A DNA stretch of 52,911 bases, filler included, from Asterionella formosa (taxonomy: Eukaryota), in the NCBI GenBank assembly GCA_002256025.1. It is 4 parts of 4 records of this genome, joined end to end, with 100 filler letters (N's around TTAATTAATTAA, not from the genome) between each part and the next. Parts side by side here need not be neighbours in the genome. Positions count along the whole stretch, not along the records: positions 26,519 to 39,672 come from NKIB01006921.1; 3 more parts are not named here. One strand, given 5' to 3'. The number at the start of each line of letters is the position of its first letter. Position 1 is the first letter of the stretch. Both the position numbers and the translations under genes were made by a program. Shown here in pieces: positions 1,728 to 37,571 of the stretch. The notes under the pieces are model-generated. The model worked only from the letters and a program-made list of their open reading frames with translations, was not told where the DNA came from and ran no database searches.

Positions 1728-2039
1728 TTCTAACGTGAATCAAAAGGTGAAAGCTCAATGTTGCGTGCAAACTAGTACGCAATGGATGAGTCGGCCAAGG
1801 AAACAAAACGAAATCCAAACAATGCATGTCCTGGTTCTACATACCCCCGTGCATTGTTGTCGCTTCGTGTTCGTTTTCCTGTAGACTCTACAACAGAGTC
1901 AGTACAAAAGTATACATTTATTGTTCACACACAAAAATGGATGATATACCGGTAGTTAGTATAGCACTGTTGCACGACATCATAACGATGCGACCGAGGT
2001 GCTGTACGTAGGAGTACTTATACCGGTAGGTACCTGGTA

Positions 2040-3620
2040 CCTACCAAGGAAGGTCCGATAATCGAGATATTTAGCTTTATCTTCTCTTAAGTAAAAAGGT
2101 GTTTTACCGGACCTTCCACGGTCCCTGGTACGCACCTGGCACTGGAAGGTAGTGCACGTTTTATATGCACCTTTTCAGTTTTGATGCTTTCCCAATGGAT
2201 CGTCTCATGCCTGCCAGACGAGCAAGATAGGCCAGCTTTTGATGAAAATAATGTTCCTTGAGTAATTTAGGAAAATGATAGTCTTATTGACTGATGACGA
2301 TTCGCAGAGTCAGTCTCTGAACTCGACTCCGATTTGCTGACTGATGAATGGGTTCAAGAAACCGTCTTTTAACCGTCTTCTAGCTTCGGAATCCACATAG
2401 GAATCCTACCTTTCTACATTTAGAACTTGCTGACAATAACAGAATTTGCGGACTCTGACTAGAACTTGCTGACTACGACAAAAACTTGCAATTCAGAATA
2501 GATTTTCTGAATGATCCTTATGCCTATGAAGTATATGATAGATGAATGAACTCAGCCACTACTGGGGGGGGGNNNNNNNNNNNNNNNNNNNNNNNNNNNN
2601 NNNNNNNNNNNNNNNNNNNNNNNNNNNNNNNNNNNNNNNNNNNNNNNNNNNNNNNNNNNNNNNNNNNNNNNNNNNNNNNNCCCCCCCCCGATTGTATTGC
2701 CAATACTACTTATGATCATAAGCAAACTATGTGGTGTCATATGTATATGCATGGCTGGTCACAGTCATTATCATGCCACATGCAACAGGCTACCGTGGTA
2801 GCTACTGCTAAACTACTGATAAATGGTACCGGTATTTGCAATATCATTCATATATCACATATATACTAGTATGGCTAAGTACTAGGATAGTCCACCTGTA
2901 TATATTTTCAGGGTACCAGGTACCCGAGGTAGCCTTATAGAAGCTAGTAGTATATAATTATTCAGCTTAGATGTTGCAATTTGTTTCTGTATATAAAACG
3001 CCAGAGTGTAGTTCTTGTACACGGCTGGAGAATCCTGCATCATGCCATTTTCGCCTTTACCAGCATGTCAAAAATAACGAATTTCTTCATGGAAAAAGAA
3101 AACGACGCTATGCTATCTGGTAAATATATCTAACACAATGTAGATAATACTATCGTAAAAAAATAATTGCAATAGCACTAATAATGACATCAAAAATTGA
3201 AGTTGCCGGTGGCGCATTGCTTCACATAGTTCAGTTGATGCACAATTCAAAACGACGAAGTTATCAACAGAGTTTACCCGTGCTTTTACAGCACGCAGCA
3301 CACTACACAACAGTTATCTGTAGGTCGAACGAAATTTTGTTTGATTCTCTTATTACGAATAGAAAATGCTGATTTTTTGATTGGTGAATTCCATTAGCGA
3401 ACCATCATCCAGTTGCTGAATACCATTACCAGTAGTAGGTGGTGAACACGATTTCGATGAAAAGAAGACGACTTAGATTTAATGAATGATAATTTAACAT
3501 TGGAGAGCGATACTTAAGAATGAAAATCCAGTCTATGATCTCATCTGGCAGGCATGAGACAATCCATTGGGAGTGCTGTCAAAACTGAAATGATGCGCTA
3601 CCGGACCTTCCTGGTGCCTG
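2040..3620. mobile_element. Non-autonomous TIR (MITE-like) element remnant, spanning an N gap
   Basis: About 50-bp inverted repeat: 2173-2222 TTTCAGTTTTGATGCTTTCCCAATGGATCGTCTCATGCCTGCCAGACGAG versus 3540-3590 CTCATCTGGCAGGCATGAGACAATCCATTGGGAGTGCTGTCAAAACTGAAA. The terminal motif GGAAGGTCCG (2048-2057) has inverted copies CGGACCTTCC at 2108-2117 and 3602-3611. No clear TSD and no transposase ORF. Confidence 0.6.
2421..2490. repeat. Short degenerate tandem repeat, period 39 bp
   Basis: TAGAACTTGCTGAC at 2421 and again at 2460, each followed by similar sequence. Confidence 0.55.
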
Positions 3621-4968
3621 AAGCTTGCTAGAAGCTGTGGTACATTTGATGACAAGAAAATTTTGGATATTGCAGATATTCATGCCTGAAGGCCTAAAAC
3701 TTAAAATAAATAGGCTGACCAGCATGGGAGACAGTTATCTTTCATTCGTGGCATGCTTATTTTGAATAGATTTCTCCTAGAACTCAATTTGGCTCAACAC
3801 AAACTATTCTAGGGTGAAAGCCATTCCCCCATTCTGAAACCCCTAAATCAAAACAAGATTAGGAGTTTTACAGGAGAACAAGATTCCAATGGGGACCTCA
3901 GAGGCACAGATAAGAATATGTTTACCAACAGCATATAATAATGACTGTACATTTGCAAGGCTGATAATACATAAATACTTGGGTTAAATATCAATATCAA
4001 TATAATATCATAAAATTTGTTTGAACATAAAAGTTCCTGGAACAGGTTTACTGGTGGTACCAGTAATAGTAATAGTAATAGTAACAACATCTTGACAATG
4101 CATGATGATATGCCTATTGTTAACAGACTCCGCCAGTGCTGTAACCATTGGTTGCGGTACTAATGTGCTATATGCCGAAAATGACAAAACAATAGCTCTA
4201 TACCGACAGCATCTTCCGTTTTTGGGAATTTGTCGTAAACTAACTTCATGTACGACAAAGTTCAATTATGACAATTTTGTCGTAAATGAGATTCAGATTG
4301 TTATGGTAATTTTGCCTAAATTTACAGTTTAATATGGAATAAAGATAACTATCGGTACGGTAAATCTTTAAATTCAGCACAATTGCCGCAATTTCTGGTA
4401 CTGGTAGTTCAGTGAATATTGAGTACCGGTCCGGTACCTGGCACCAGGTACGTTGAGGGGAAATAACGGTACCTGGTACATGTGCGCGCTGTCCGGATGT
4501 GGGTACCTGGTACTGTAGCTAGTACCAGGTACACAAACCACAGTAGAGTTTCTCAGCACGACCATCTCCACTCAAAAAAAATTAGCGAATGCTTGAGATT
4601 TCGACATGATTCTAAAACGTCTGACCGCGGGTCCGCCTAAGAATGGTGCTGCGTCAGCATCAGTCTGGACCAGGCTGTAGGCAAGCATCCTCTGAAGCGT
4701 GAAGCAATAATACATTTAAATATATTTATGTATTAGAAAGAAGAATAAAAGGATGATGGAGCAGACTAAATCAAAAATAATTTATGATATATATTAAATA
4801 GAGAATCATGCCATCTACATTTATGTATGTGAACTTTTTGAAATATTTTATTATTCCACTGTGGTCGAATAATCTTTCCTGGAAGTCATGTGCTGTGTGT
4901 ATCCATCAATTTCCCGCCACAAATAATTTTGTTGCTTCTCGAACAATCCAAAACCCCGGCGATCAACC

Positions 4969-7320
<2,352 letters not shown>

Positions 7321-9458: not shown

Positions 9459-11141
9459 GTATATACTCATTTATCAGAAACAATGAGAATGTAATAAAAT
9501 GTATGCTGCTAGTAGTATATGTAGTAAAAGCTAGACTAAATAAGTAGCTGTGAATTTCCACCAACGGTGGGTCAATCAATAAGGATTTCATTGATAATTT
9601 GGGACAATGCAAGATCTTGGCCATACACCTTGAAGATTCGGTCAATTGCTGTATAAGCAGCCACTGTAATGACCACATCTAAAAACGACCACATGTCATC
9701 TGCTCTGCAACTGAATCCCCTACAACCTTGCACCGATAGTAACAAATAAACTTACCATTCCTTCCCCTCTTAACCCTTTTAACAGCCTAGTTGCCTTTCT
9801 CTCATCCAGCAATTTCAACTTCAATCTCCTGAAATATTAAGCATGAAAAACAATATTTGGCTTTATGATTCATTGAAATACCAGGCCTTTGCAAGGCTAG
9901 CACTGGAATTTTGCATCCAGCCACCATACGTAGCTAGGACTTAAATATCCCAATGTATAAGAGATACTACATACCAGTGATCAAAGTACTTCATGCATGC
10001 TTCTTGTTAGTTTTGGCAACAACCTCACTTAATTTTGCTGCCCAAGACAGTAGTACCAGTAGTATATAATTGTAGATTAATATTGGTTGTTTTGATCAAT
10101 TTTGCAGATATAGCAAAAAGTTTTGATTTGGCAGATAAAGTAAACTTTACTCGAATCAAGCAATGATCCAATGACTCAAAGTAAACTTTGCTCGAATTGA
10201 AACAGTGAAACAAGCAAGACAAGATAACGAATCGGGTAAAACTTATGGCTCAGGTGTGGCTCTAACAGATGTTCATGAGGCAGCAGCAAGAAAGGACACA
10301 ACAAGAAATGAACAATACAAACATTGCAGCGAAATGATCATCAAACGAAAAGCAGCGCATTGTGCCCATTCTTTCAAGTAAAAATGCATTCGACTGGTAT
10401 CTGCAAAGAACCGGTGATCACCAAAGGGAATGTTACATGTGTATCCAGTGTGGCTGGCATGGGTTTACAAGATCTTGCAAACCAGGCCAATCTAGTAATG
10501 GAAGTGAGTAATTTGCAGTAGCCAATCAGTATATAAAAATACTGCGCGCACTTACTATGGAATTTTTAGGGCAGGAAATTTTACAACTTAATATTGAATC
10601 ATAAGACTCTGATTTGGATGATGATGTTCCAGCACTAAGTATTTCTGATTCTGATATTTTGGAGATAGTTGAAAGTGTGCGCTAGTTGGTATGCTGTTGT
10701 TACTTTGGTTGCCGTGCGTAAGATTTAACATGTACCAACACTCCGTACCTCTTTTCGGTACCCGGGTACCTGGTACATGTACAAAATACGCACCGGATTG
10801 ATTTGGCTGCTGCGTGTCCCCGTGTGCTCTTCAACACACTCATCTCCGGGTTATGATTACGTCGCTCACCACAGGCACCTTTGTCATCGCTAATGATGAT
10901 TTGTGTATTGTGTTCCCGCATCATTGCCATCTTTTCGCCTCCTGCGTGTTTGTCCTTCGCATTCGACATCCCTAGTACTACAATTGCGTAGACAAGTACT
11001 GAGAAATCTGCAACAGTTGTTGTATCCGACATGCACATCGGTAGTCGTTGCTTTCATTCCATAGACTTCGTCAGGCGACTCAGAAAAGCTCACAAAACGA
11101 ACCTTCTCACACTGAACACTCAACGCACATACAGCCTCATC

Positions 11142-16945: not shown

Positions 16946-19900
16946 ATGCATATTAAACAAGTTGTTCTCGATGGATTTAAGTCCTACGCGCATCGTACAG
17001 TTGTGGATGGGTGAGTTTGTGATCGCGTTTATTGAATCAGTCGGATCAGAAATAGAAAGGACTAGAAGAATTCTACGCATGCGAACCTCATCTTTGCGAT
17101 GTCATCTACATTGCCATCTCGAATCTGATGCATCACTGACCTTTGCGTTCACTAATCTCCATTTTCCTCAGCTTCGATCCTCATTTCAATGCCATTACCG
17201 GCTTAAATGGCACTGGCAAGTCTAATATTTTGGACGCCATTTGCTTTGTCCTTGGAATTACGAACCTTTCTCAAGTCCGCGCCGGAAATCTGAGTGAACT
17301 CGTCTACAAGCAAGGTCAAGCTGGTGTCAACAAGGCGAGTGTAACTGTCATTTTTGACAATTCAGACCCAGCCACATCCCCTGTTGGATACGAAGTATGC
17401 GACGAAGTGACAGTGACTCGACAAGTTTTGATTGGGGGCAAAAGCAAGTACTTAATCAATGGACGCAATTCTCCTGCAGGCCAAGTGCAAAATTTGTTTC
17501 ATTCGGTTCAGCTAAATGTCAACAACCCTCACTTTCTTATCATGCAGGGTATGTCCTAGCGATCAACGAACGAACGGTTTAAATTGATACTTAACTGACG
17601 TGTTGCTAACTATGCCCTTGCACGTTCGATAATAACAGGGAGAATCACGAAAGTATTGAACATGAAACCTCATGAGATTCTTGGCATGGTGGAAGAAGCT
17701 GCTGGTACTAGAATGTACGAGACTAAACGTGTCGCGGCGCTCAAGACAATTGAAAAGAAACAGCAAAAAGTCGACGAGCTCAACTCGGTCCTCTCCGAAG
17801 AAATCACCCCCACTCTTGAGCGTCTCCGCGGTGAAAAGCAGTCTTACCTTAAATGGTCAAAAAACAATGCAGATATTGAGCGCATTGAACGCTTTGTCAT
17901 TGCCAGTGAATACGCCAACGCTCAATGTTCCCTCGATAGCACTACGGAAGGATCTACAGCCCTGGAAGAACAAGTTGAAAAACTCAATGAGCAAGGCGAA
18001 ACGACTCGACACGAGATATCCATCAAAGAGCAGGAGATTTCTCAGCTTACTAAGAAACTGAGCGGAGAATTCGATTCACAATTGACATGCGCAAAAACAA
18101 ACGAAGAGAAGAAGTCCAAAGCTCTTGTCAAGATTACTTCGGCCTGGCAGATCAGCACGAACGACGTCACATCTTCCGAGAACGATCTGAAGGTTGCTAG
18201 AGATCTCGTGACCGAAACTGTGTCAGCAGTCAAAGCCAAGGAAACAGAAATAGCCGATGAGTCTGCTCGCATTTCTAAAGACATGCAAGATGCTGCCAAC
18301 GCCGAAGAGATCCATGCTAATCTCCAAAAGGACTATCAAAACATGTCGGCAGGAATTTCCTCGTCACAAGGCGAAGAAGGAGCATCCTTACCACATCGCA
18401 TCTCTCAAGCACATGCGGACAGCAAGAGCGCCGAGGCTAAGGCCAAAAATGCCAAAATGAAAATTGATCATTTAGTCAACGCACTCAAGGGAGTCAAGAA
18501 AGACATGGACAAAGAAAGCACATCCTCCATGGCACTTGCCAGCAAACGCGCCACTGCTTTGTCAAAGGTTCAAGGTCTTCATGCCAAACTAGGTGAATTG
18601 GATTTCGACATCGACGCATTCTCCTTGTTAGAACAAGAGAAAGTTGATCTCGATTCGGTTACTGCTGATTTGAAGGATACAGTTGAAACGCTTTCGGCTC
18701 AGTTGGAAGGTCGCCTTCGATTTAAGTATTCCGACCCCGTCCGTGGCTTTGATCGCTCGAAGGTAAAAGGTATTGTCGCTCGCTTGGTTTCTGTCCATCG
18801 TCCGGAGAATGCGACTGCGTTGGAAATAGTTGCCGGAAGCCGACTTTACCAAGTTGTTGTGGACGAAGCCATTACAGGAAAAGCCCTCCTTAGCAACGGC
18901 AAGCTTGAGCGTCGCGTTACTATAATTCCCTTGGACAAGATTCAGCCTCGTCGCATAACCAACGCCGCTTGTGAGCGCGCCAACGCGATTGCTGCTGAAT
19001 TGAATTCATCCGCTACTCCCGCTATCGAACTTATTGGTTTTGACGAAGAAATTCGCAATGCCATCGAATACGTATTCGGTTCTACCTTTGTTGTTGATGG
19101 CATGCAGGCTGCCAACAAAGTTTGTGATGCCACCAAAACCAAGACCGTTACTCTTGATGGAGATGTATACGACCCATCTGGTACTATATCGGGTGGATCC
19201 AACCATAACCTCGGGTCAACTCTATCGAAACTGTCTGAGCTTACTACTGCTTTGCACGATCTTGGTAAAAAGGAAGCTCGTTTGACAGTAGTAGAATCTC
19301 AAATGAATGCGATGAAGTCGGTCTCAGGAGAATTTGAGAAGTGCAGCGCTCGATTGGACCTTGCTTCAGCTGAATTGGCAAATGTAGAAAAACACTTGTC
19401 TCAAACTACTTTTGGTATGTTGGCGGAGAAACACAGCTCCATGACTGCCGAAATTGACACTGCAAGGATAGAATACGAGAATATGGAGCATGAGAAGAAA
19501 GTCAAGTGGGAATTGTACAATGAGCTCCAAGAGAAAGTGCAAGAACTAACTCAGCAACGCGAGGAGCGCTTGAATCAGATTGATATCGCCGTCAAAGAAG
19601 CAAAGAAGGTGGCTGCAACCAAGTCTAAGAGTGCCCGTGAAGCCGAATTACGATCGCAGACTCTTCGCTTGGAGTTGGATAGTATGAATGCTGAAGTAAG
19701 TGCTGCCAAGCAAGCTGTTGCTGTTGCTGAAAAGGCTTTATTGCACGCACACGATGTTGAGTCGGAGCTACAAATGAGGGTGGGAGATGCCAATGCTGGA
19801 TATGACGAAGCGAAAGCAGAGTTGGATGTGATCGAGGGGCAAGCCTTGCAATTCTCGTCGGAACTTTCGATGATGAAATGTGTCAAGTCTGATATGGTTA

Positions 19901-20844
19901 AAAAGGCAGAATCTTTGGAATTGGAAGCCATGAAGTTACGAGTTCAAATATCCAAGATTGAAAAGGAACGAGTCAACGCTGAAAAGTTTGTCGCCGGCAT
20001 CATGAAAAAACACGCTTGGATTGAAAGCGAAAAGGCTGCCTTTGGTGTCGAAGGTGGTGACTACGATTTTAAAGCAACCAATCCAGGTAAAATGAGCGCT
20101 CAGCTGTCTACTTTGAAGGCGGAACAAGAAGTTCTAACCAAAAAGATAAACAAGAAAGTTATGGGAATGATTGAAAAGGCAGAAGGCGAATATACTGAGC
20201 TACTACGTAAGCGAAAGGTCGTCGAGAATGACAAGAAGAAGATTCAATCAGTCATTGAGGAGCTCGACGTAAAGAAGAAATCAGAACTGGAGCGAACTTG
20301 GAAGAAAGTTAATGGCGATTTTGGTTCCATTTTTGCCACCCTTCTTCCTGGTGCAGCTGCAAAGTTGGAACCTCCTGAGGGCATGCAGGCCTGGGAAGGG
20401 CTAGAGGTCAAGGTTGCATTCGGTGATGCTTGGAAAGATTCTTTGAGTGAACTCAGTGGTGGCCAAAGGTCTCTCCTTGCTCTCAGCTTGATCCTATCAT
20501 TGCTTCTCTTCAAGCCTGCTCCAATGTATATTCTCGACGAAGTTGATGCTGCTCTGGACTTGTCACACACCCAAAATATCGGCAACATGCTCAAGACCCA
20601 TTTCAGCCAGTCTCAGTTTGTGGTAGTTTCTCTGAAAGAGGGCATGTTCAATAACGCCAACGTAATTTTTCGCACCAAATTTGTCGATGGTGTAAGTCAA
20701 GTAACGAGAACGATTGGAACGGGAGCTAGTGTGAGGTCTAGGGCCTTGAAAGAAAAGAAGAAGGCGGAAGAGGCAATTGCGCCCACTCCAAGAAAAACAG
20801 CTCCTGGAAGCAAAAGTCGAGGAAAAGAAAATTCCGTGTTCTGA
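16946..20844 (+). CDS. SMC2: Condensin subunit SMC2; exons 16946-17010, 17172-17548, 17639-20844
   Basis: [15 protein letters not shown], Walker [32 protein letters not shown], hinge, [13 protein letters not shown] and Walker [12 protein letters not shown]. Two GT-AG introns restore the frame. Confidence 0.97.
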
Positions 20845-27390: not shown

Positions 27391-29322
27391 GACATCCTTG
27401 TTAAATAATCTATGCGGAGAAACTTTTTCCGGTGAAGAAGTATTTGAACTAATGTTAATGAAGACGAACATACAATTAATAAGATGGGATGGAATATTTG
27501 GAAAGTTAAATGTTCTATGTAATGAACTATTCACAGGCTTGTCGTCACCATCGGAGCTGCCGACAATCTAAGTAAAACAATATTCTATATGTGTTATGAA
27601 GAAAAAGAACGATTGAATGATCAGGAACAGACCATTATCATTACTACTTGGTTATCTGTATGAAAGATTGGACAAAAGATCCAAGATCCAACTGATCTGA
27701 AATAAGTGGAGTTGAATCGATTGTAAATCGATTTCTAGTTTTATAAGCTCACAATAAATAAGGAAGCAAAACGTTGCTGTCTACATTTGACTTGTCTAAG
27801 AGAAAGACTATGGCACACAGCGTGGTGTACAAACGTGTACTGCTACTGGTGTAAGGAATTTAACACAGTTTACCGGTTGGTCAATCACCATGATCCGAGA
27901 GCGCCAGCCGGACAAATAGGAGGCCCAACAAGGGAGAGATGTGATATCTCAACAACTTCGTAATATTGATCACAATTCTACCTGAAAATAAATCACGGCA
28001 GAAGACATATTTCACAATTTGACCATCGATTCCAACAATACCTACAATGCCTCAGTTCACCCGAAGACAACGAGAGCTGATGAGGGAGCTGCCTCTGTCC
28101 AAGCGTCCAGCATGGAGAGAGCGAAAGACTGCATTGACACACAGGGAAAAATTTCGAACTGCATTGACCCACTGACGGTATAAAAAACACGTTTTGTCAT
28201 GAAAAATCATTCATTTTCTATTTCTTAAGCTCCAGAATGAATCTTGTGCATATACCGGATGGAATGATACTGTTAGTTCTCAACCGATTGGACGTCGATC
28301 TTTCGTTAATTTGGGTCAAAAGTGGCGATCGGAAAAATGAAAAGCACGGATTATCCCAAGTTTGGAGTTCTTATCTTATTGAAATCTTGCTAAATGTGAG
28401 ACTCTAGAGGCTGCCTTGCTTTTATTGTTTCCCATGTCTTGTCTGCATACATGTTCTGTTTTATGGCCTTTTTGATGACAAGGTCATTGACAGCAGGCAC
28501 ATACCATTGTTGGATTTCCACTGTGGGTAATTACATTCCAAGTGAAAAGAAAATGTGGCATAAAATACTACATTGCCTTTTTTGCAGTAATAGTTAATGG
28601 AAGAATACTGGCCAAGTGTTTGGCTATCATCATTGTTTTCCCCAGGCTCCTCTGCACTAAACTCACAGCTTTTAGTACTATCATTGGCTATTTGCCATAA
28701 ACTCCCTGTACAACATCATAGAAATAAGTACATTTTTGTAAGCATGGGAATGTGTCAGTTCATTTACTCTCCTGGTGAACATTGCTTGTTGCCATGCTGA
28801 TGTTTAATTGTACTGATGTTCAAGTTTATTTTAATTTATGATGTTTTACCATTAGAATAATCCCTCAACATAACACAGCCAGAGCACCAGGTACAGAGGT
28901 GCAGGTACGAGTCGTACCCAAAAGTGCTCACCAGCTACACATGCGTTACCAGGTACCAGTACCAGTACTGTACCAGGTACCCTGGTATTGGTACCAGTAA
29001 AAAACTGCCATGACCCATTGAGTTAGGGTGTTTGTTTGACTTCTCCGACCAAAGGTAAATTCTGTCGAATTTCGGACCCATCTGTTCGATAGTGTCAGAA
29101 CAGCATCGATCACTCAAGCTGTTGTGTTGAAATTCTAATTGAACGATTACATCAGAAGATACGATGATAATAAAACAGCTAATAAGTGATTTCTATGGGT
29201 CATGGAAGTATATACTTTTTTCTGAAAAAAAAAATATAAGTTTATATACATTTTCGAGGACGGATTAGGTCATGTGTTAACGCACTTTTATTTCATTATA
29301 CCTTTTTACTAAAAACATATAT

Positions 29323-31974
29323 TCAAGATGCCGCACCTTCCACCATCATGATGCTCCTCCAACTTTCAAGTCCAATGGTCAGATCATTGCGATCCCATTG
29401 GCCACAGCATCACCTGCATCTTCAGCAGCATGCTGAGGATCAGGAAGCTGTGCTGCAGCAAGTGCATTTCGTGGAATCTGCTCCCCTCGATGGCAAGTGT
29501 CGATGTACCTTGCTTTGAAGCAGCTGTTGCCTTGTATTTGGTACTGGTGCATCACCCTCACGTTTATAACAAATTACAAGAGTTCTGAGTTCAGTCACAT
29601 TGTATGATTCAATCAGCTTTCCAGTTGCTCTTACAGCATCAACCTTGTCCACCATTTTTTTAAATCGAATATTTGCTCGCTTTTCCTTTTCGTCTTGTGC
29701 AAGCTGTTGTATTTTCATAACTTCTTTTGCATGATACCAAAGTTCTGGACCAAGTCGACAGTTACCAGCAGCAAAGTGTGTGTAGTCCAGCAGTAATCCT
29801 TTTGTGTTGATCTATTGCAGCCTGTGCTGTTTCCTTTCGTTTCCTTGCATGATCATCAGCATCTATTCCATTCCTTGCATCTTCTCTCTTGCAAAAGGCA
29901 AAAAAAATTTCTGTCAATGACCCAGAATATCCGTCTGTCAGATTCAGCATTTCAGGAGTTTCATTCGAGTTGGTTGTGGTTCCAGCAAGTGATGAATTGA
30001 GTTGAGTGCTTGTATTCTGTATTCCGCAGTGAGCAGAAGGTTATAGTTGAGAAGCCCCCATCCTCGTTCTGAGACTGCTTTCCTGTTTGTTCTTTTATTT
30101 GCAAAGCTTTTTTCCCAGGCAGTTGAAACAAGGGCAACAATGTCAGATTTCTCAATAGCAAAAGGCAAATCATGTTCAGTCTTTTTGGTAAGTTGGTCTC
30201 GCTTTGCAACTGTCAGTTCCATTTTGAAACTTCCATTCTGCTCCGACAAATCTCCGACTTGCCAGTAGGAGGTTCCATAAGGGACACCTATACACACACT
30301 CCATGGGGTCAAAGGGCTGTTGATATATTCGAGAAAGGAGCAATCGAATCTGGAGCCATGTCCATCTAGGATGAGGAAAGGGTTTATTCCATCACTGCGG
30401 TCAAACAATTCCAAAGAATCCATTTGGGCCAACATTTTCGCTCACCAAGAGTTCTGCAGTAATGCTTCCTGATTCCGAACAACAACACAAAGTGGGCACA
30501 TGCTTTCCATTTAACACACACAGTTCCCTGGGGAAATCGCTTTCCTTTGCCAGTGTTTAGGTTGAAGTTGTCATCATTGCCATGCCATTCCACAAACGGG
30601 TTAAGCCCCTGTACCCAACTAAGTTCAAGCTCTTTGGCAGCAAATATTATAGCACACATCACTGGAGTTCCTTTGGCAGCTGTAAATCCCAAGACTATAA
30701 AATGCGCATCCTTTATAGCACTTCGTTGTTGTGGTCTTGCCGCTGTTCCAATACATAACACTTTCTCACCCCCCCCCCTTCTGTCCATCTTTTGCCTGAC
30801 TGGTGTTACTTCCGACTTCATCAACAAATATGAGTTTGGTGGGATGCTTAAAAATGTACTTTGTTTTCATTCCCAGGGCTCCTTCCTCATTTGCAACAAC
30901 ATCTCCTGATTTATTCAACCACACTTCTTCATCCAGCTTTTCCGCAATACCCATCTTGGCCATTTCTTCATACGCATCTCTATACATCTGCTCAAAGTTC
31001 CTTAATGTGCACCAGTCAGCACGCTTCCCATCGAATTTGACACCTTTCTTTGCCATGACATGAAGCCAATTGCGACTCATGAATCCCCTCCAGTACCCTG
31101 ATCCCAGTGGTTTAGACAATGTTGGATCCTCTCTGAATGAAATGCAATGTTTCTGCCTCCACAGCACAATATTTTCCATGATGGATTTACCAGACACAAG
31201 TGAGTTAGCAAGTTCCAGTCCCTGCCAACATGTAATTGGGACTCGCATTTTGGAGAGTTGTTCAATCAGCACAAAAATGTATGGCTCAACTTCGAGCATT
31301 GGTGACGTTGAAGCTTCGTTTTTTCCCTGGGGGTTTTTGCGTTTTGCCTGAGATCTCACTGTTTCTATATTTATTTCAACTCCAGGAGGAATACCAGGCG
31401 CCTCTTTTCTCCCCCTCTGTGGCCGACTGGACAATGCATTCTTCGATATTCTTTGCATCGATGCTGATGCCATTTGAGTGGTTCCCTTTGTCCGGCCTCC
31501 AGTAAGTATGGTGGTCATGGGGACAATGACTGCAGGAACACCAACTGAAGCAGTAGTCATATTTGTAGAAAATAATTCAATACTATTAATAGCATTGATA
31601 TTATCATCTATTCCTGTCATGTTGTCATCCTCTTCTCTTGTCAAAAAAGATGTTCTACTACTTGAATAGTAAAATGAGCGCATATCTGCCTGAGAATCTC
31701 CTGATAGAATACCCATGTTGGGGACAGCACTAGCACCTGCCTTTCGTAACCAGTAGTCGAATTTTTTTTTGGTAAGCCAAGGAAAGTATACCTTCTGAGC
31801 CTTCACCATGTTGGAAATGGCTCCGTATGGGAGCTTTCCATTATTGCTCGCCTTGATTGCTTCAAGTTCTGTAACAATGCCAAGCATGTTGCGTTGAATA
31901 ACGACCTGAGCATAATGAAGTGCTTCTGTCTCCTTCTTGATGCTGGAAGATCGACTTTTTCTTGACTTCGGCAT
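29323..31974 (-). pseudogene. pogo/CENP-B-family DDD transposase, frameshifted (3' end approximate)
   Basis: Consecutive overlapping ORFs give LIFVDEVGSNTSQ, FIVLGFTAAKGTPVMCAIIF, PFLILDGHGSR and CIGVPYGTSYWQVGD. There are several frameshifts, one at a 10-nt G run (C10 at 30769-30778 on +). Confidence 0.87.
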
Positions 31975-32081
31975 GGTGGTGCTGGTTTGCGTGATAGCTG
32001 TTAACTGTTTTTCATGTTTTGTGGACTGACAGATACGTAGATATCAAAATCCTCAATCAGATATAGGCGCGCCCATATCAT

Positions 32082-32174
32082 TTGCCATCTCTGTACAATT
32101 CAATACCAAAACAAAATCTTTATTTACAGACGATACCATTGCCATCTCTGTACAACTCAATACCAAAACAAAAT
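32082..32174. repeat. Direct repeat, 36 bp x2 (period 57), upstream of the pogo transposase
   Basis: TTGCCATCTCTGTACAAYTCAATACCAAAACAAAAT at 32082 and 32139. Confidence 0.85.
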
Positions 32175-32669
32175 GATTATTGCTATAAATGTGGTTAACG
32201 TTCAGACACTAATTAAATCAATGAAAACGAAATATTTGTATATATCGTTGTATATTATATGACAATGAGAACTCCAAACTTTTCCTAATCCGTGTTCTCT
32301 ATGTTTTTTGGTCGATTCACTATTTCCGGCAATCTATTGAGATGAACAATTAACTCCAAATCTCAAAGAAAATACATAGCTGACTAGCCTACATGCTCGA
32401 GAAGGAGCCAGAACTCTCAGAACTTAAATTTACTTAAGGTTTGACAGCAAAACGTGTTATTCGGCGTTCAATGGGTCACGGCAGTTCAAAAATATTCTCG
32501 ATGGGTCATGGCAGTTTTTACTGGTACCACTACTCCACTACAAGGTACCCCTGGTTGAATTTCTTGGTCAATACCATTGCATACCGCAGGGGTCCACTGT
32601 ACCATTGGCAGATACTTGAATAATGATCACAATCCTATGATGCATCCTGGAAATATGATAGTTTTTATT

Positions 32670-34112
32670 TGCAGACGCAAACAAGTGGTTGATTAGTGTT
32701 TTGGACGAGTTCGTGAATTCGGTTAGAGAGAGGTTCTGGTTGTTTTAATCCATGCTCCATAATACATCTTTAGTCAGAGACAATCTGCTTTGGAAGGTCG
32801 CTCTACACAGACTAGGCAATTGGATTTTAGAAAGGCAGGGCGGAGAAGAATGCGGATCCTGTGCGATGGATTGGAAAGAAACCTTGGTTCTGGAATGTGT
32901 AGTGGAAGGCGTCATTTGTTGGGTTTTTTCCCATTCAATTTCCTTGGCCATTGAAAGTCAGACTGTAGATTTGATAATTCCTTATAGGACCATTTTGAGA
33001 CAGCTCGAATTGTAGAGTCATCATCCTAGATGATTGTAGAGTAGATAACATTGTATTTAGTAATGGCATCAACCATCATTTCCACACCCGCATCTGGTTC
33101 CATTGTTTTCGAACTTCCAGTTACGTGATTCTTGGAGCAAACATGATGTTTGATAGGTTTCTTGTGCCGTATAGCCCTATCGCACACATTACAGACCTTT
33201 GACTTTACTTGATAGTCTAGGATCTTTCTCGTCTAGCCACCAATACAGAATGCATGTCCACTTACGGAGTTGTATTTATTCCCACTGGATCGCTACTGCC
33301 ATCCCATATCATAAGTAATGGTGATTTGCAGCATATTGAGTACATACATGAGTTCTGTAACAGGTAGACTATTCCACCACTGGAAATCTCGTCTTTTGTC
33401 AGCCCAATCGCTGCGTTCACGCACATTCAGTGATTGATATATTTCCTCCCAACAAGCCTCTTCCATAGCAAGAGCAGTGGTTGCCACTTCCGCCTCACCA
33501 ACTTTCTTTTCTACCGCAGTAAAATTACCTTGGGTTGACCAAAATCCAACTGCAAGAGGTAAGTTCATTGAAGAATAAACAATGTCGACGTCACCAGGTC
33601 CCAATCCAGCTTCGTGACAAAGAATAAACTGCTGGTTGATTGCAAACTGTTTAGCTTCTTTTTTCTTTATCTTACCATGGTCTTCATCTTCTTTGTTGCA
33701 GCTTCTTGCAGATTCGAGTTTAGCAACCTGTTTTTGGCGGGTTAAACATGTTATTTTGACGGCACATGCCAACCCATAGGTCTCCAATGACACAACAATC
33801 AACGGTTGCATTACTGATTTTTCTAACAAGGCTTGTTCCAAGAAAGAATCACAGTTCTCTGCCATTGTAAGGTGGTACTAGGCACTATTGTTTTGTAGGT
33901 CAGTTACAAAGGCACAAACAGTTTGTTTACTATATTTGTCAACAAATGTACTAACACATGTTCTGCAAAACACCTTTTCTGATTGTTGCAGGAGGAGAAT
34001 GTTTGATTGTAGGACACCACCAATTCTGATTTTCGTCGTTGACTATATTCCGACGTCCATGACAACCAACTCCAATTTCTGCTAAAAGACGGCCACCACT
34101 GGAGCGCGGCAT
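32670..34112 (-). pseudogene. Kolobok/'Mutator-like' DDE transposase with in-frame stops
   Basis: Hand translation beyond ORF 33293-33865: ETYGLACAVKITC...FAINQQFIL...ITYDMGWQ*RSSGNKYNSVSGHAFCIGG*TRKILDYQVKSKVCNVC...HVCSKNHVTGSSKTME...TII*DDDSTIR. This gives two acidic catalytic motifs flanking a CxxC-H-C insert. Confidence 0.82.
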
Positions 34113-34168
34113 GTTGCTTTAGTTGTCTATGTTGTTTGTTTTTATTACTAATGTGTTAAATTAATAAA

Positions 34169-34762
34169 TTATAAACAACATTGACAAAATATTATAGAAA
34201 ACAAGAAGAGTGCATGCCACCTCACTTCTAGATGATGAGTTTGAAACAACATACATACTAGGTGCATTGATGTAAAATATTCTATTGAAGTGAATGAAAA
34301 AAATAAACTAAACTCATCACTACTAGATTTTGAACTTTTAGAAACAGGTTTGAAGCCAGTGTACCCTTTGTTGCGGTCCTTGCTTTTCAATAGGGATCGA
34401 ACCCCCTTCAAATAACAGTCAGGAAGTTCCATGTGAACACCTTTTCCCAATGGTCCACAGTAAACTCTGATTAAAACTTTGTAGAGAAGGTTGCGGGCTA
34501 TTGACGCCGTAATCTCTTCATCCTTCAGTTTGCTGAGAATGTTATCATCTTCCAAGAAATATTCCACCAACTCTTCGACTTCATCCCATCGGCACTGACA
34601 TTCAGGGCATCCAAAATCACAGCATTCGCAGAAGATGCGACTCTCACATCCCTCCAATTCCGACTCTACAATTAACCGGTCTTGACATGTTGGACAGGTA
34701 TCATGACTGTAGTTGAATGGGTCATCCCCCTTGTTCTCATGATGATGTGTAATTTCGCTCAT
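34169..34762 (-). CDS. Cys-rich protein resembling the P2X7 cytoplasmic ballast domain (KolX-like transposon accessory protein)
   Basis: N-terminal CPTC...CECC..GCPECQC. C-terminal ARNLLYKVLIRVYCGPLGKGVHMELPDCYLKGVRSLLKSKDRNKGYTGFKP follows the R..Y......G.LG.....LP.C....R......Y.GFK pattern. Confidence 0.7.
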   Translation of the reverse strand: MSEITHHHENKGDDPFNYSHDTCPTCQDRLIVESELEGCESRIFCECCDFGCPECQCRWDEVEELVEYFLEDDNILSKLKDEEITASIARNLLYKVLIRVYCGPLGKGVHMELPDCYLKGVRSLLKSKDRNKGYTGFKPVSKSSKSSSDEFSLFFSFTSIEYFTSMHLVCMLFQTHHLEVRWHALFLFSIIFCQCCL

Positions 34763-35212
34763 GGTTGAATGTTGCGTTTTTTTTGTTTCTTACCAGTATA
34801 GTCATGAAAGATAGCATTTGACATGCTGACACACATATGTTGATCGTATTATATGTATATATACATTCAGTGATGGAGGATGTTTACATATATATTTAGC
34901 GAATTCGAAAAGGAATCTATGTATGTCAGCGCAAATTTCCACTGATTTAATTATTTCAAATGGAATCACGTCATTCACAAATAGCTAATAAAATTCTTAA
35001 TTCCAGGGAATTTTGGCAACCCTAAGAAATATATTAATTTTTGCCTAGGGTTTCAAATGCAGCAACCTTAAGGTTGCGGCCCCGCAATTACACATCGCGA
35101 GGCCTTTTTTTCCAAAATAATTTTATCATGTACCTCAATCCACACAGTAGTTAAAGGAAAAGTTGACTTTTGCTAACGCCACCACTTTGCATATGCTTAG
35201 ATACAGTCATTC

Positions 35213-35470
35213 CTCGACTTTGGGGTATGATCTATATTCAGATATGTTGAGGACCTCATTTCTGGAGAGAAGTGGCAGCTTTCCCTCTTGGAATAGTAAC
35301 TATCCAAAAGATAGTCGAAAAGGGGGGCCATCAAGCCTTTTTAAAGAGGGGTAACTGCCACTTCTTTGCAGAAGTTAAATCCTGACCTTATAGGGTACAC
35401 GGCTAGGCTATCTATTTCATTCTTCATGAAACCACGTAGATGTAGAGCAATGCCCCTCCAAAAAGTCGAC
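35213..35470. repeat. Imperfect foldback inverted repeat, probably the subterminal region of a non-autonomous element
   Basis: 35261-35289 TCTGGAGAGAAGTGGCAGCTTTCCCTCTT pairs with 35344-35372 AAGAGGGGTAACTGCCACTTCTTTGCAGA. Outer arms TCGACTTTGGGG and CCCCTCCAAAAAGTCGA also pair imperfectly. Confidence 0.65.
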
Positions 35471-37571
35471 CCGATCGGCTTTTTCAACAGTCGCCAAAAT
35501 ATTTGAATCAGAATTTACACATGCAAAAATGTTCTCGTATACTTAGAGTCTTGCGTAGGTATGTTTTGCTGAATAATTCTCAGTCCGAAAAGACTCCAGG
35601 GTAAGTTCCTGTGTCACTACACATATTCTGATTGGTTGAATTGAAGTTATTCACCTGCTCCAGATTTTCTGAAATATCCCGGTCTAGTAAAATAAAGCCA
35701 GCCACACTTGAACCACACCTATTAGATGTTCTGAATACTGGTTGGTAAAATCAGTGCCAGTTAGCGGTAGTTTCATCCTGAATTCCATCATGATGAACCA
35801 AGATTATGTACTACCTGGTATTCCGAGTACCGACAGACTGTTACTCTCGGACTCTGGTACTGATTTACATACCGGCATATTCCTCTGTGTGTGGAGTGAT
35901 ATTGAGACTACATACAGCAACGTTGATTCAATATAAACGTATAAACACAAGTCATGGGCATACATGTTGGGATATTCTTAATTTATACATGTGTTTTCGC
36001 TTTGAGCAAATTTATGTCTACATCCAGCAACAAAGAAAAAGTATTAATGTTTAAATATCATTTTTTAAATGGAACTCTATCAATCTGGCCCCGATTCCTA
36101 TTTAATTCAAATATTCAAATGGACACTCGAATCATGGGAATTCTTCCGTGGTTTGTTTTGATCGCTTCCATTGTTGTTTGTCGTTACGCACTGTTGTTTT
36201 GTTTCGATTGTACATATCTACATAAGAACCAATGCATTTATCAATGACTACTCATTGAAGATGTGGTATTGTGCCGTTGTTGATCATATTTGTTGATTTG
36301 TATAGTTGTTGACAATGATGTAAATATTGCCACCAAGGAATGCTTTTCTTGTACTAACGCGCTTTGCTACGAAATTTCTACTACGAGTTCGTATCAGAAG
36401 CTACATGAATACTCAGCTAGAGAGAGTCAATAGCAGTGCTGGAGCAGCGTGGCGATCACGCTTGCTCAGAATGTAATGATCAGGTTTGCTTGTTTGGTGG
36501 GCAGTGGAGAGGAATGACTGTGGCGGAAATGGTTGCAGAAACCAGACCATTTAAGGTCTACATTGTATTCAGCTTTTTTTCTTCTTCTTTCAGTCTTCGA
36601 TTGTGTGGTGATGGAAAGTCAATGTTGCCTGGTGTGTAAGTACTACAATGATTCACAATGCATAGCTACGTCTCCATTGAAACTCTTATTTTTTATTTCA
36701 TTTCTAACCCAAAACAATTTTTTCTATTTCTCATTTGATGCTACTTATTACATCGCATTTCATACTTTGGTTGCTCCAAACATCATGTTCAATTTTCATT
36801 GATGTTGCATGTTACAATCATTCTCGTGTGTTTTACGCTTGTTGTACCATCTCTATGCATATTACCGTTATTTTGGTTGTCATGCTAAAATCGGCAATTT
36901 TATTGCCGAAAAATTCGATGTGCCCCATATTGCCCTTAAATAAAAATTACTTAAGAAATTACTTAGAGACTAAAAATTTCTTAAAAGTACCCGAATGGCA
37001 AGACGATAGCTGGAGCGGGAATTGCTATTACAGTGCGAGAAGGAGAAACAAGAATTACAATGTGCTAAACACCATTGACAAAAACAAAGAAAAGGAAAGA
37101 GAAATAAAGAAATCAACAATGAAGAAATTGCGCCAGAGCTGGTGTGCTGCTCAAAGCAATAAATTTTTTGAGATGACAAAGGCCATGATGACAAAGAGAA
37201 GAAAATAACAAAATCGATGAGTTGGAAGCCCTGGAATCACCAATTGTTATGGATACTTCAAATTGAACCACCGGAAGTGGGGCAAATATTGAAATCAATA
37301 ACCCAATCCACACTCACCATCCAATTCTCTGGCTGACATGAGAAGTGCAGTCATAGAGAACTGAACCAAGCTACCACAACTTTTTTGAACAACTTCCATA
37401 CAAGGAAATGGCTACCACCCAAACCTTTCCACTGTCCCACCTTATGTGGGCCATTGAGTGCAACGGCGGCAACTATAGAAATAGAATAGCAAGAATGCAC
37501 TATAAAAATGATTAATATATTATTCTAAATTCACTTTCCTCGAGATGTCATGAACACACATGTCAGAAATA

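Follow-up and report, generated by a model that had tools for sequence, protein, structure and literature searches.

We analysed a 52,911-nt stretch of DNA from Asterionella formosa (GenBank assembly GCA_002256025.1), hereafter called the window, which consists of four parts of four records joined end to end; all coordinates count along this whole stretch. A first-pass annotation had described, at 32670-35071, within the part taken from NKIB01006921.1, a two-gene Kolobok-like transposon carrying an accessory protein that resembles the ballast of the P2X7 receptor. The minus-strand segment running from 35071 down to 32678 is very probably a dead, 3′-truncated copy of a Kolobok-superfamily element, a cut-and-paste DNA transposon with two genes and a high copy number, whose accessory protein is a divergent member of the KolX/P2X7-ballast family.

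The outline of the element given by the first-pass annotation was borne out in all of its parts. On the minus strand, a TTAA at 35068-35071 is directly followed by an element end that starts with GG at 35067. The open Cys-rich open reading frame (ORF) is real; it runs from an ATG at 34762 to a TAA at 34171-34169 and has 197 codons, 11 of them for Cys. The co-oriented transposase extends from 34112 to about 32678 and is interrupted by 8 in-frame stops, and its read-through (with X at the stops) matches the Pfam family PF20700 with an expectation value (E) of 1.4e-35. The tandem order, accessory gene, short spacer and then transposase on the same strand, was also as described. The left limit had been placed at 32670, which fits the point at 32678, about residue 520 of 791, where homology to intact relatives stops in blastn. 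A 27-letter pattern made of the TTAA plus the element end had a single occurrence in the window, and 100 shuffles produced none. No 3′ terminal repeat was found in the window at up to 3 mismatches, and the inverted repeats found around the element were short, chance-like pairs only. A TTAAGG at 32434 was considered as the other terminus and rejected, its continuation being unlike the family end.

Nine loci for comparison (L001-L009) were obtained from a scan of metagenome contigs. In blastn, the window segments 35072-34017 and 33972-32678 aligned to L002 and L003 at 75-78% and to L001 and L008 at 84-94%. L003 is an intact element of ∼3.9 kb with both ORFs intact on the same strand and no sign of introns. 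Its accessory ORF (1167-1625) encodes 152 amino acids, and its transposase ORF (1812-4187), which starts ∼190 nt after the accessory gene, encodes 791. The 5′ terminal sequence of L003 recurs in inverted orientation at 4767-4794, where it is followed by TTAA. The 5′ end of L003 is without its first 8 letters, and L002, whose transposase is identical to that of L003, runs off its contig. An accessory gene followed by the transposase start was found in 8 of the nine loci, the exception being L004, a 1.7-kb contig; this recurrence of the gene pair, like the relatives of the ORF itself, shows that the features did not arise by chance. At 90% identity, 159 sequences fall into the cluster represented by the L003 transposase, and by this measure the family seems to have been active recently somewhere. 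Run X1, the best-matching DNA run (81% of sampled words) and labelled algae metagenome, was also compared with the window; 25,569 X1 contigs fell on the stretch, and the family is therefore highly repeated in this sample. Three of the nine loci (L005, L007 and L009) preserve the upstream gene region, but their match to the transposase breaks off near residue 131 and resumes at residue 429 or 495. This suggests internal deletions, and these loci appear to derive, by such deletions, from a diverged subfamily. In L005 and L009 the frame of the accessory gene is disrupted.

We next consider the accessory protein. The ratio of non-synonymous to synonymous substitution rates (dN/dS) of its gene between family lineages is 0.15-0.41, so the gene has been under purifying selection and is a working gene of the element. 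A search of 5.8 billion clusters with the ORF gave 32 relatives at E ≤ 1e-3, all of them metagenome proteins with 40-91% identity, most of which end near residue 150. When the family profile was used to search 1.84 billion representatives, 80 matches were obtained at E ≤ 1e-3. Thirty-five of these were scanned against Pfam, namely 34 of the 38 with E between 3e-6 and 1e-3 (four of 65-67 amino acids were omitted) and P0054. PF20478 (P2RX7_C) was present at E ≤ 0.01 in 26 of the 35, with 15 above the Pfam cut-off. The matches always fell in the C-terminal part of the Pfam model and at family profile positions ∼103-192 of 192. A profile of the 26 carriers in turn matched four P2X7 chains in the PDB (9e3m, 9e3q, 6u9v and 8tr5) at E 4.5e-8 to 6e-6; the best of these was 9e3m (residues 534-593, E 4.5e-8), and the next match had an E of 0.27.

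Structure prediction pointed in the same direction. With 16 close relatives as input, AlphaFold2 gave an unusable model with a predicted local distance difference test (pLDDT) score of 46. With 51 sequences the pLDDT rose to 72; blocks averaged 84-94 across residues 61-130 and ∼50 across the N-terminal Cys cluster. In a VIA structural search with the latter model, rat P2X7 (6u9v_A) ranked first of 48,161 chains, with a root-mean-square deviation of 4.0 over 91 residues. Residues 46-141 of the model, of which the start region has a pLDDT near 50, were aligned with residues 477-595 of 6u9v_A. This range agrees with the one described for KolX, whose similarity to P2X7 spans residues 476-595 (Kojima & Bao, PMC9587614). 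The same source confirms that KolX is related to the ballast, as the first-pass annotation had stated. Taken together, the profile matches and the predicted model support the accessory protein as a divergent member of the KolX/P2X7-ballast family over its last ∼60-90 residues.

Several results weigh against this assignment. A Pfam scan gave no family for the window ORF up to E 1 and none for the L003 accessory protein up to E 0.001, so the PF20478 gathering score is not reached directly by the accessory protein. Searches of PDB sequences with the ORF and with a 16-sequence family profile gave no P2X7, the best hits being chance matches of Cys residues or of His tags. The alignment of the family with the 26 PF20478 carriers in hhalign (probability 99.2%, E 8e-20, 85 columns) is partly circular, since the carriers had been picked by the same family profile; independent of this circularity are the Pfam labels of the carriers and the PDB match. 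Foldseek found nothing in the PDB below E 5 for the 51-sequence model. The Z score of the VIA match to 6u9v_A, 5.2, is barely above those of unrelated helical matches (4.9 and 4.8), and a Z below 8 can reflect a common arrangement. In the ESM Atlas the best scores, 0.86, were to unnamed clusters and lay below lead level. The structural comparison with the ballast thus gave a divided answer, with no Foldseek match but a top-ranked, weak VIA match. Finally, the first and second ballast Cys motifs, PxWCxCx2C and LCCRx3GxC (PMC7016195), are not recognisable in the N-terminal cluster of the family. The proposed likeness to the ballast therefore stands for the C-terminal part through the profile chain and the structural ranking, but not as a direct Pfam or PDB match.

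These points are what could be said for a convergent or artefactual likeness, in which a Cys-rich, low-information sequence mimics the ballast and the upstream gene encodes an unrelated small zinc protein: nothing direct in Pfam or the PDB, nothing from Foldseek, a Z of only 5.2, and ∼60 residues bridged to P2X7. We regard this as quite unlikely. The 26 of 35 matches that carry PF20478 do so independently, and all 35 are significant in a library-wide search. In the matched stretch, which is poor in Cys, the likeness is carried by R, Y, G-x-L-G-K-G, L-P-x-C and Y-x-G-F-K. Moreover, P2X7 was the sole family below E 1e-5 in the PDB profile search, and it ranked first in the structural search over the expected residue range.

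Membership in the KolX/ballast family can also be followed residue by residue. The ballast is the Zn-coordinating Cys domain of P2X7 (PF20478; PDB 6u9v and 9e3m; Rump et al. 2020, PMC7016195), and its residues were mapped to the ORF through the hhalign alignment of the carriers and their PDB profile match. R546, Y550, G559 and L569-P570 of P2X7 correspond to R90, Y94, G103 and L113-P114; C572 corresponds to C116, C573 to C117 of the family, R578 to R122, and the Y588-x-G-F-K motif to Y134-x-G-F-K. According to Rump et al. (PMC7016195), only R546 and R578 of the five P2X7 residues that contact guanosine diphosphate are conserved outside vertebrates. The equivalents of these two Arg, and only these of the five, are kept in the ORF, while H547, R574 and K583 are replaced by N91, L118 and S127. 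The third ballast Cys motif, (L/I/V)PSC(C/S)x3IRx2(F/Y)Px5Y(S/T)G (PMC7016195), is present in modified form. The family consensus reads LPDCC-x3-VR-x2-LK-x7-YTG, with F581-P582 of P2X7 (F/Y-P in the motif) changed to L-K and the spacer before the Y-x-G motif longer by two residues. The C-terminal half of the protein keeps the helix pair with conserved Arg and Tyr and an LP-x-C-C ... (I/V)R ... Y-x-G-F-K motif. The N-terminal Cys cluster that had been proposed as peculiar to this lineage was confirmed; it has nine conserved Cys (positions 23, 26, 39, 45, 47, 48, 52, 55 and 57) and is lineage-specific. The ballast is the tail of a receptor, whereas the accessory protein is a free-standing transposon protein.

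The copy in the window is heavily decayed. Six of the 8 in-frame stops of the transposase read-through lie inside the clearly homologous part, and at the aligned stops relatives have Q, H or K; Y or R; C or T; G; and R. At 33979/33980 the window copy lacks 77 nt that L001 and L008 have, which causes a frameshift; in the layout of X1 and RNA contigs, the missing 77 nt reappear in both DNA and RNA contigs, as loose ends at 33980. From about residue 520 onward nothing is left of the transposase, so that the C/DxxH block (517-530), the second zinc finger and the catalytic E (near 582) are lost, as is the 3′ end. With no catalytic E, no 3′ end, stops and a frameshift, this copy cannot move by itself. 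Recoding of TAG was considered, as the first four in-frame stops of the transposase remnant (minus frame, 34042-32692) are all TAG, and was rejected; relatives have ordinary residues at these positions, and the accessory gene of the family itself stops at TAG.

The accessory ORF of this copy has also changed. Family relatives stop after codon 149-152 with TAG or TGA, while the window copy has GAG at this place and continues for 45 codons. At 34315 most of the X1 depth, 57,106 of 60,945, has the letter that restores the stop. Three changes are private to the window copy, R88I, R110H and C117Y. At least 14 of 16 family members keep the residues affected, and R110 is kept in at least 90% of 51 sequences; at each of these positions the X1 family depth mostly has the conserved letter. 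The first-pass annotation had left it between short length and retention why this ORF is open beside a decayed transposase. At the lesion rate of the transposase (7-9 per ∼490 codons), a frame of 149 codons would escape a premature stop with a probability of ∼0.07-0.12. The ORF of the window copy is drifting and is most likely open through its short length, and retention is contradicted by the lost stop codon and the private changes at conserved sites.

It would follow from host co-option that this ORF was kept by selection while the transposase decayed. Its 149 codons without a premature stop, beside a transposase disrupted by a frameshift and at least 6 stops, would fit, as would the RNA-library contigs of the family that cover the ORF, including an 828-nt metatranscriptome contig that spans both the ORF and the beginning of the transposase. 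Nevertheless, co-option is very improbable. The stop codon has been lost and 45 unconserved codons added, R110H, C117Y and R88I fall at conserved positions, and the chance of an unbroken frame of this length is ∼0.07-0.12. The RNA contigs, being 90-95% alike to the window copy, derive from other copies and are evidence neither for expression of the window copy nor for a single transcript with both genes.

The transposase places the element in Kolobok. The intact L003 transposase matched PF20700 at E 3.8e-43, and no other transposase family was found for it up to E 10, the sole other match being unrelated (E 0.16). The L003 protein has the Kolobok signature, that is, a first D block (residues 306-312), S-x-x-ME (372-378), a second D (402-407), D-x-x-H-x-K/R (455-461), C/DxxH plus a zinc finger (517-530) and a catalytic E (579-585). 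By eye, L003 and the window copy show their motifs in the order printed for Kolobok_1_ADi, 1_CGi, 7_CGi and 1_FraCyl in Data S5 of Kojima & Bao (PMC9587614). A CCHC finger follows the first D in L003 (residues 345-369) and in the window copy. The closest published transposase, again by eye, is that of the diatom family Kolobok-1_FraCyl. Kolobok is defined by TTAA duplications and 5′-RR/YY-3′ ends (Kojima & Bao 2022, PMC9587614). A TTAA adjoins every intact terminus, namely the 5′ ends in the window, L001 and L002 and the 3′ end in L003; these four termini represent three distinct flanks, as the window and L001 share theirs. The termini in the window, L001, L002 and L003 read GG... and, inverted, ...CC, which fits RR/YY. 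In addition, 26 X1 contigs match through 35071, the last A of the TTAA, and then diverge (agreement 0.41). Two points weigh against the assignment: the likeness to Repbase Kolobok was judged by eye from a supplement and not by a computed alignment, and none of the copies obtained showed TTAA on both sides, so that the target duplication is deduced. The comparison of copies thus gave TTAA at all intact ends but no copy with both ends intact. The Kolobok assignment made at first reading is nevertheless supported by the TTAA, the GG...CC ends and the published motif series.

The Pfam title of PF20700 is ‘Mutator-like transposase’. Three metagenome proteins with PF20700 (P0112, P0115 and P0116) are fused to a DEDDh/Exuperantia-like exonuclease, and two of them also to a PML C-terminal domain; KolobokD has been described with a DEDDh/Exuperantia-like exonuclease (PMC9587614), and these proteins look like KolobokD-type elements. 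In view of the match to the Data S5 motif series and of this fusion in relatives, the name is misleading and no more than a label. Apart from the name, a Mutator-like element (MULE/Phantom-type), which would have 8-10-bp target duplications of no fixed sequence and the TTAA as part of its ends or by chance, could appeal to the lack of any single copy in which a true duplication is visible. We consider it extremely unlikely, because TTAA stands at four of four intact termini with three distinct flanks, the 26 X1 contigs diverge directly after it, a single TTAA lies at the junction of two copies, and the transposase motif series is that of published Kolobok families. It is scarcely credible that the element is a piggyBac-type transposon, a type with a TTAA target in which a few families encode a second, short protein similar to KolX (in Data S6 of PMC9587614, one family from a red alga and one from Phytophthora): the nearest distant relatives of the accessory protein do resemble these two piggyBac-borne proteins by eye and the target is shared, but PF20700 was the sole transposase family matched up to E 10, with none of the piggyBac type, no piggyBac transposase is present in L002 or L003, and the ends start with GG, not with CC as Kojima & Bao (PMC9587614) contrast for piggyBac.

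As a Kolobok, the element can be compared with the published families. Kol0 (Kolobok-1_XT type; PMC9587614) shares two genes, the TTAA target, RR/YY ends and an accessory protein related to the P2X7 ballast; a KolX-type, ballast-like second protein is thus present here as well, as judged from profiles and the model. The CCHC finger is present in the window and L003 transposases, whereas the printed core of Kolobok_1_XT is without it, and on this sequence feature the element is assigned to Kolobok but outside Kol0. The finger is described as limited to KolobokP/E/D/5 and a few solitary families (PMC9587614). The accessory gene lies upstream here, while the transposase is protein 1 in Kolobok-1_XT. 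Compared with the KolX of Kol0, the accessory protein is short (∼150 amino acids), matches in the C-terminal motif alone, and has a different N-terminal Cys cluster. Kojima & Bao (PMC9587614) report Kol0 solely from animals.

Kolobok-1_FraCyl (Repbase; from the diatom Fragilariopsis cylindrus) has, by eye, the same type of first-D motif, the CCHC finger and S-x-K-x-ME. Its transposase is labelled ‘2p’ in Data S5 (PMC9587614), so that it too has an upstream gene. The likeness rests on the transposase core, not on protein 1, and identity is clearly low; unpublished Repbase annotation of protein 1 may already include a ballast-like partner of a CCHC-type Kolobok transposase. In Data S6 (PMC9587614), piggyBac-2_GrCh and piggyBac-14_PI encode short KolX-like second proteins. 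By eye these share a short architecture with the distant relatives of the accessory protein, in which C-x2-C-x3-4-C-x-W is followed by R..(A/L)Y, G-x-L-G-K-G, LP-x-C, IR and Y-x-G-F-K, and both groups are without most of the seven ballast Cys. They differ from the accessory protein of the window family in riding on piggyBac and in having three N-terminal Cys versus nine. In the papers searched, no ballast-like accessory protein outside Kol0 and a few piggyBac families was found, and among the matches listed for the name KolX, PMC9587614 alone used it in this sense, the others being on materials or chemistry.

Features of the Kolobok-family copies in the window
Feature	Position	Strand	Remarks
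TTAA adjoining the 5′ end of the element	35068-35071	.	Also common to the 3′ end of the second copy fragment opposite
5′ terminal inverted repeat, 23 bp, GG start at 35067	35045-35067	-	Matches L003 859-873 and, inverted, L003 4770-4784
Non-coding 5′ leader, terminal repeat to accessory gene, ∼280 nt	34763-35044	-	78% to L002 and L003, aligned with the ORF
Accessory gene proper, 149 codons, Cys-rich, KolX/P2RX7_C-like	34316-34762	-	Supported by profile chain, model and dN/dS between family lineages
Read-through tail, 45 codons past the lost family stop	34169-34315	-	Family TAG is GAG at 34315-34313; TAA at 34171-34169
Kolobok (PF20700) transposase pseudogene, ATG at 34112	32678-34112	-	Keeps first D, CCHC finger and second D
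77-nt deletion site, frameshifting	33979-33980	-	Versus L001 (1064 to 1142) and L008 (572 to 650)
3′ non-coding end of a second family copy	35072-35514	-	Ends at TTAA 35068-35071; head-to-tail junction
Separate fragment of the same transposase family	10178-10674	+	C-terminal residues 668-791 of the L003 protein; 66% over 539 nt; tblastn E 1e-19

The surroundings of the element were also inspected. The window is eukaryotic nuclear DNA with 42% G+C and 1,862 N in ten runs, and its host genes include those for Hsp70 (5330-7320), Sir2, SMC (17599-20844) and a Raptor-like WD40 protein. The second family copy (35072-35514, minus strand) and the copy downstream of it meet head to tail at a single TTAA. 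The same junction occurs in L001 (93% alike), at L001 1-45. It could have arisen by insertion beside an older copy or represent a propagated dimer or an orthologous locus. At the truncated end, the segment 32414-32677 is itself highly repeated in X1, and 46 loose ends with low agreement fall at 32675-32677; an unrelated repeat seems to end exactly at the cut-off point of the Kolobok copy. Contig joints such as that from 32677 to 35380, carried by one contig with 21 letters on the shorter side, are too weak for interpretation. Further along, a pair of 42-nt inverted repeats (28333-28374 and 32265-32306, 76% complementary, 3.9 kb apart) brackets an open ORF of 425 amino acids (30766-32043, minus strand) that has no Pfam match. 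This ORF with its repeats is possibly another DNA transposon beside the truncated end of the Kolobok copy. At 32082-32181 a 43-nt unit occurs as two direct copies 57 nt apart, 93% alike.

The intact element would encode the ∼150-amino acid protein first and then, ∼190 nt downstream, the 791-amino acid DDE (Asp-Asp-Glu) transposase. To judge from the families concerned, the DDE enzyme would carry out cut-and-paste transposition into TTAA. The small protein would bind zinc and possibly a guanine nucleotide, as predicted from the ballast, for which binding of two zinc ions and of GDP/GTP is characteristic. Translated from the transcript of the element itself, it may serve transposition as a cofactor or regulator. 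A complex prediction with the L003 transposase and accessory protein gave no verdict for or against binding, the score of 0.00 having been obtained without alignments and with an uncertain fold of the partner.

The pairing of Kolobok with KolX is already known, from animals (Kol0). What appears to be new is a ballast-like protein paired with a CCHC-type, FraCyl-like Kolobok transposase, with an upstream gene order and a new Cys cluster. The copy in the window is by itself ordinary transposon debris. We put forward tentatively, and consider unlikely as it stands, that the KolX/ballast module is ancient, older than animals, and a portable accessory of TTAA-targeting transposons, and that the P2X7 ballast is its domesticated descendant. 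Three transposase backgrounds would be covered by this idea, the Kol0 Koloboks, a few piggyBac families and the CCHC-type algal Kolobok lineage. If it is true, the module has moved between elements and acts not with one transposase but at a step common to TTAA transposition, for example at the target site, in excision repair or in nucleotide-dependent assembly, and the conserved Arg pair marks an ancestral guanine-nucleotide site. The pairing in an algal element widens both the host range of the module and the set of its transposase partners. The compact, intronless and apparently still active algal element would offer a small, tractable system in which the roles of zinc, guanine nucleotide and the module in transposition can be tested.

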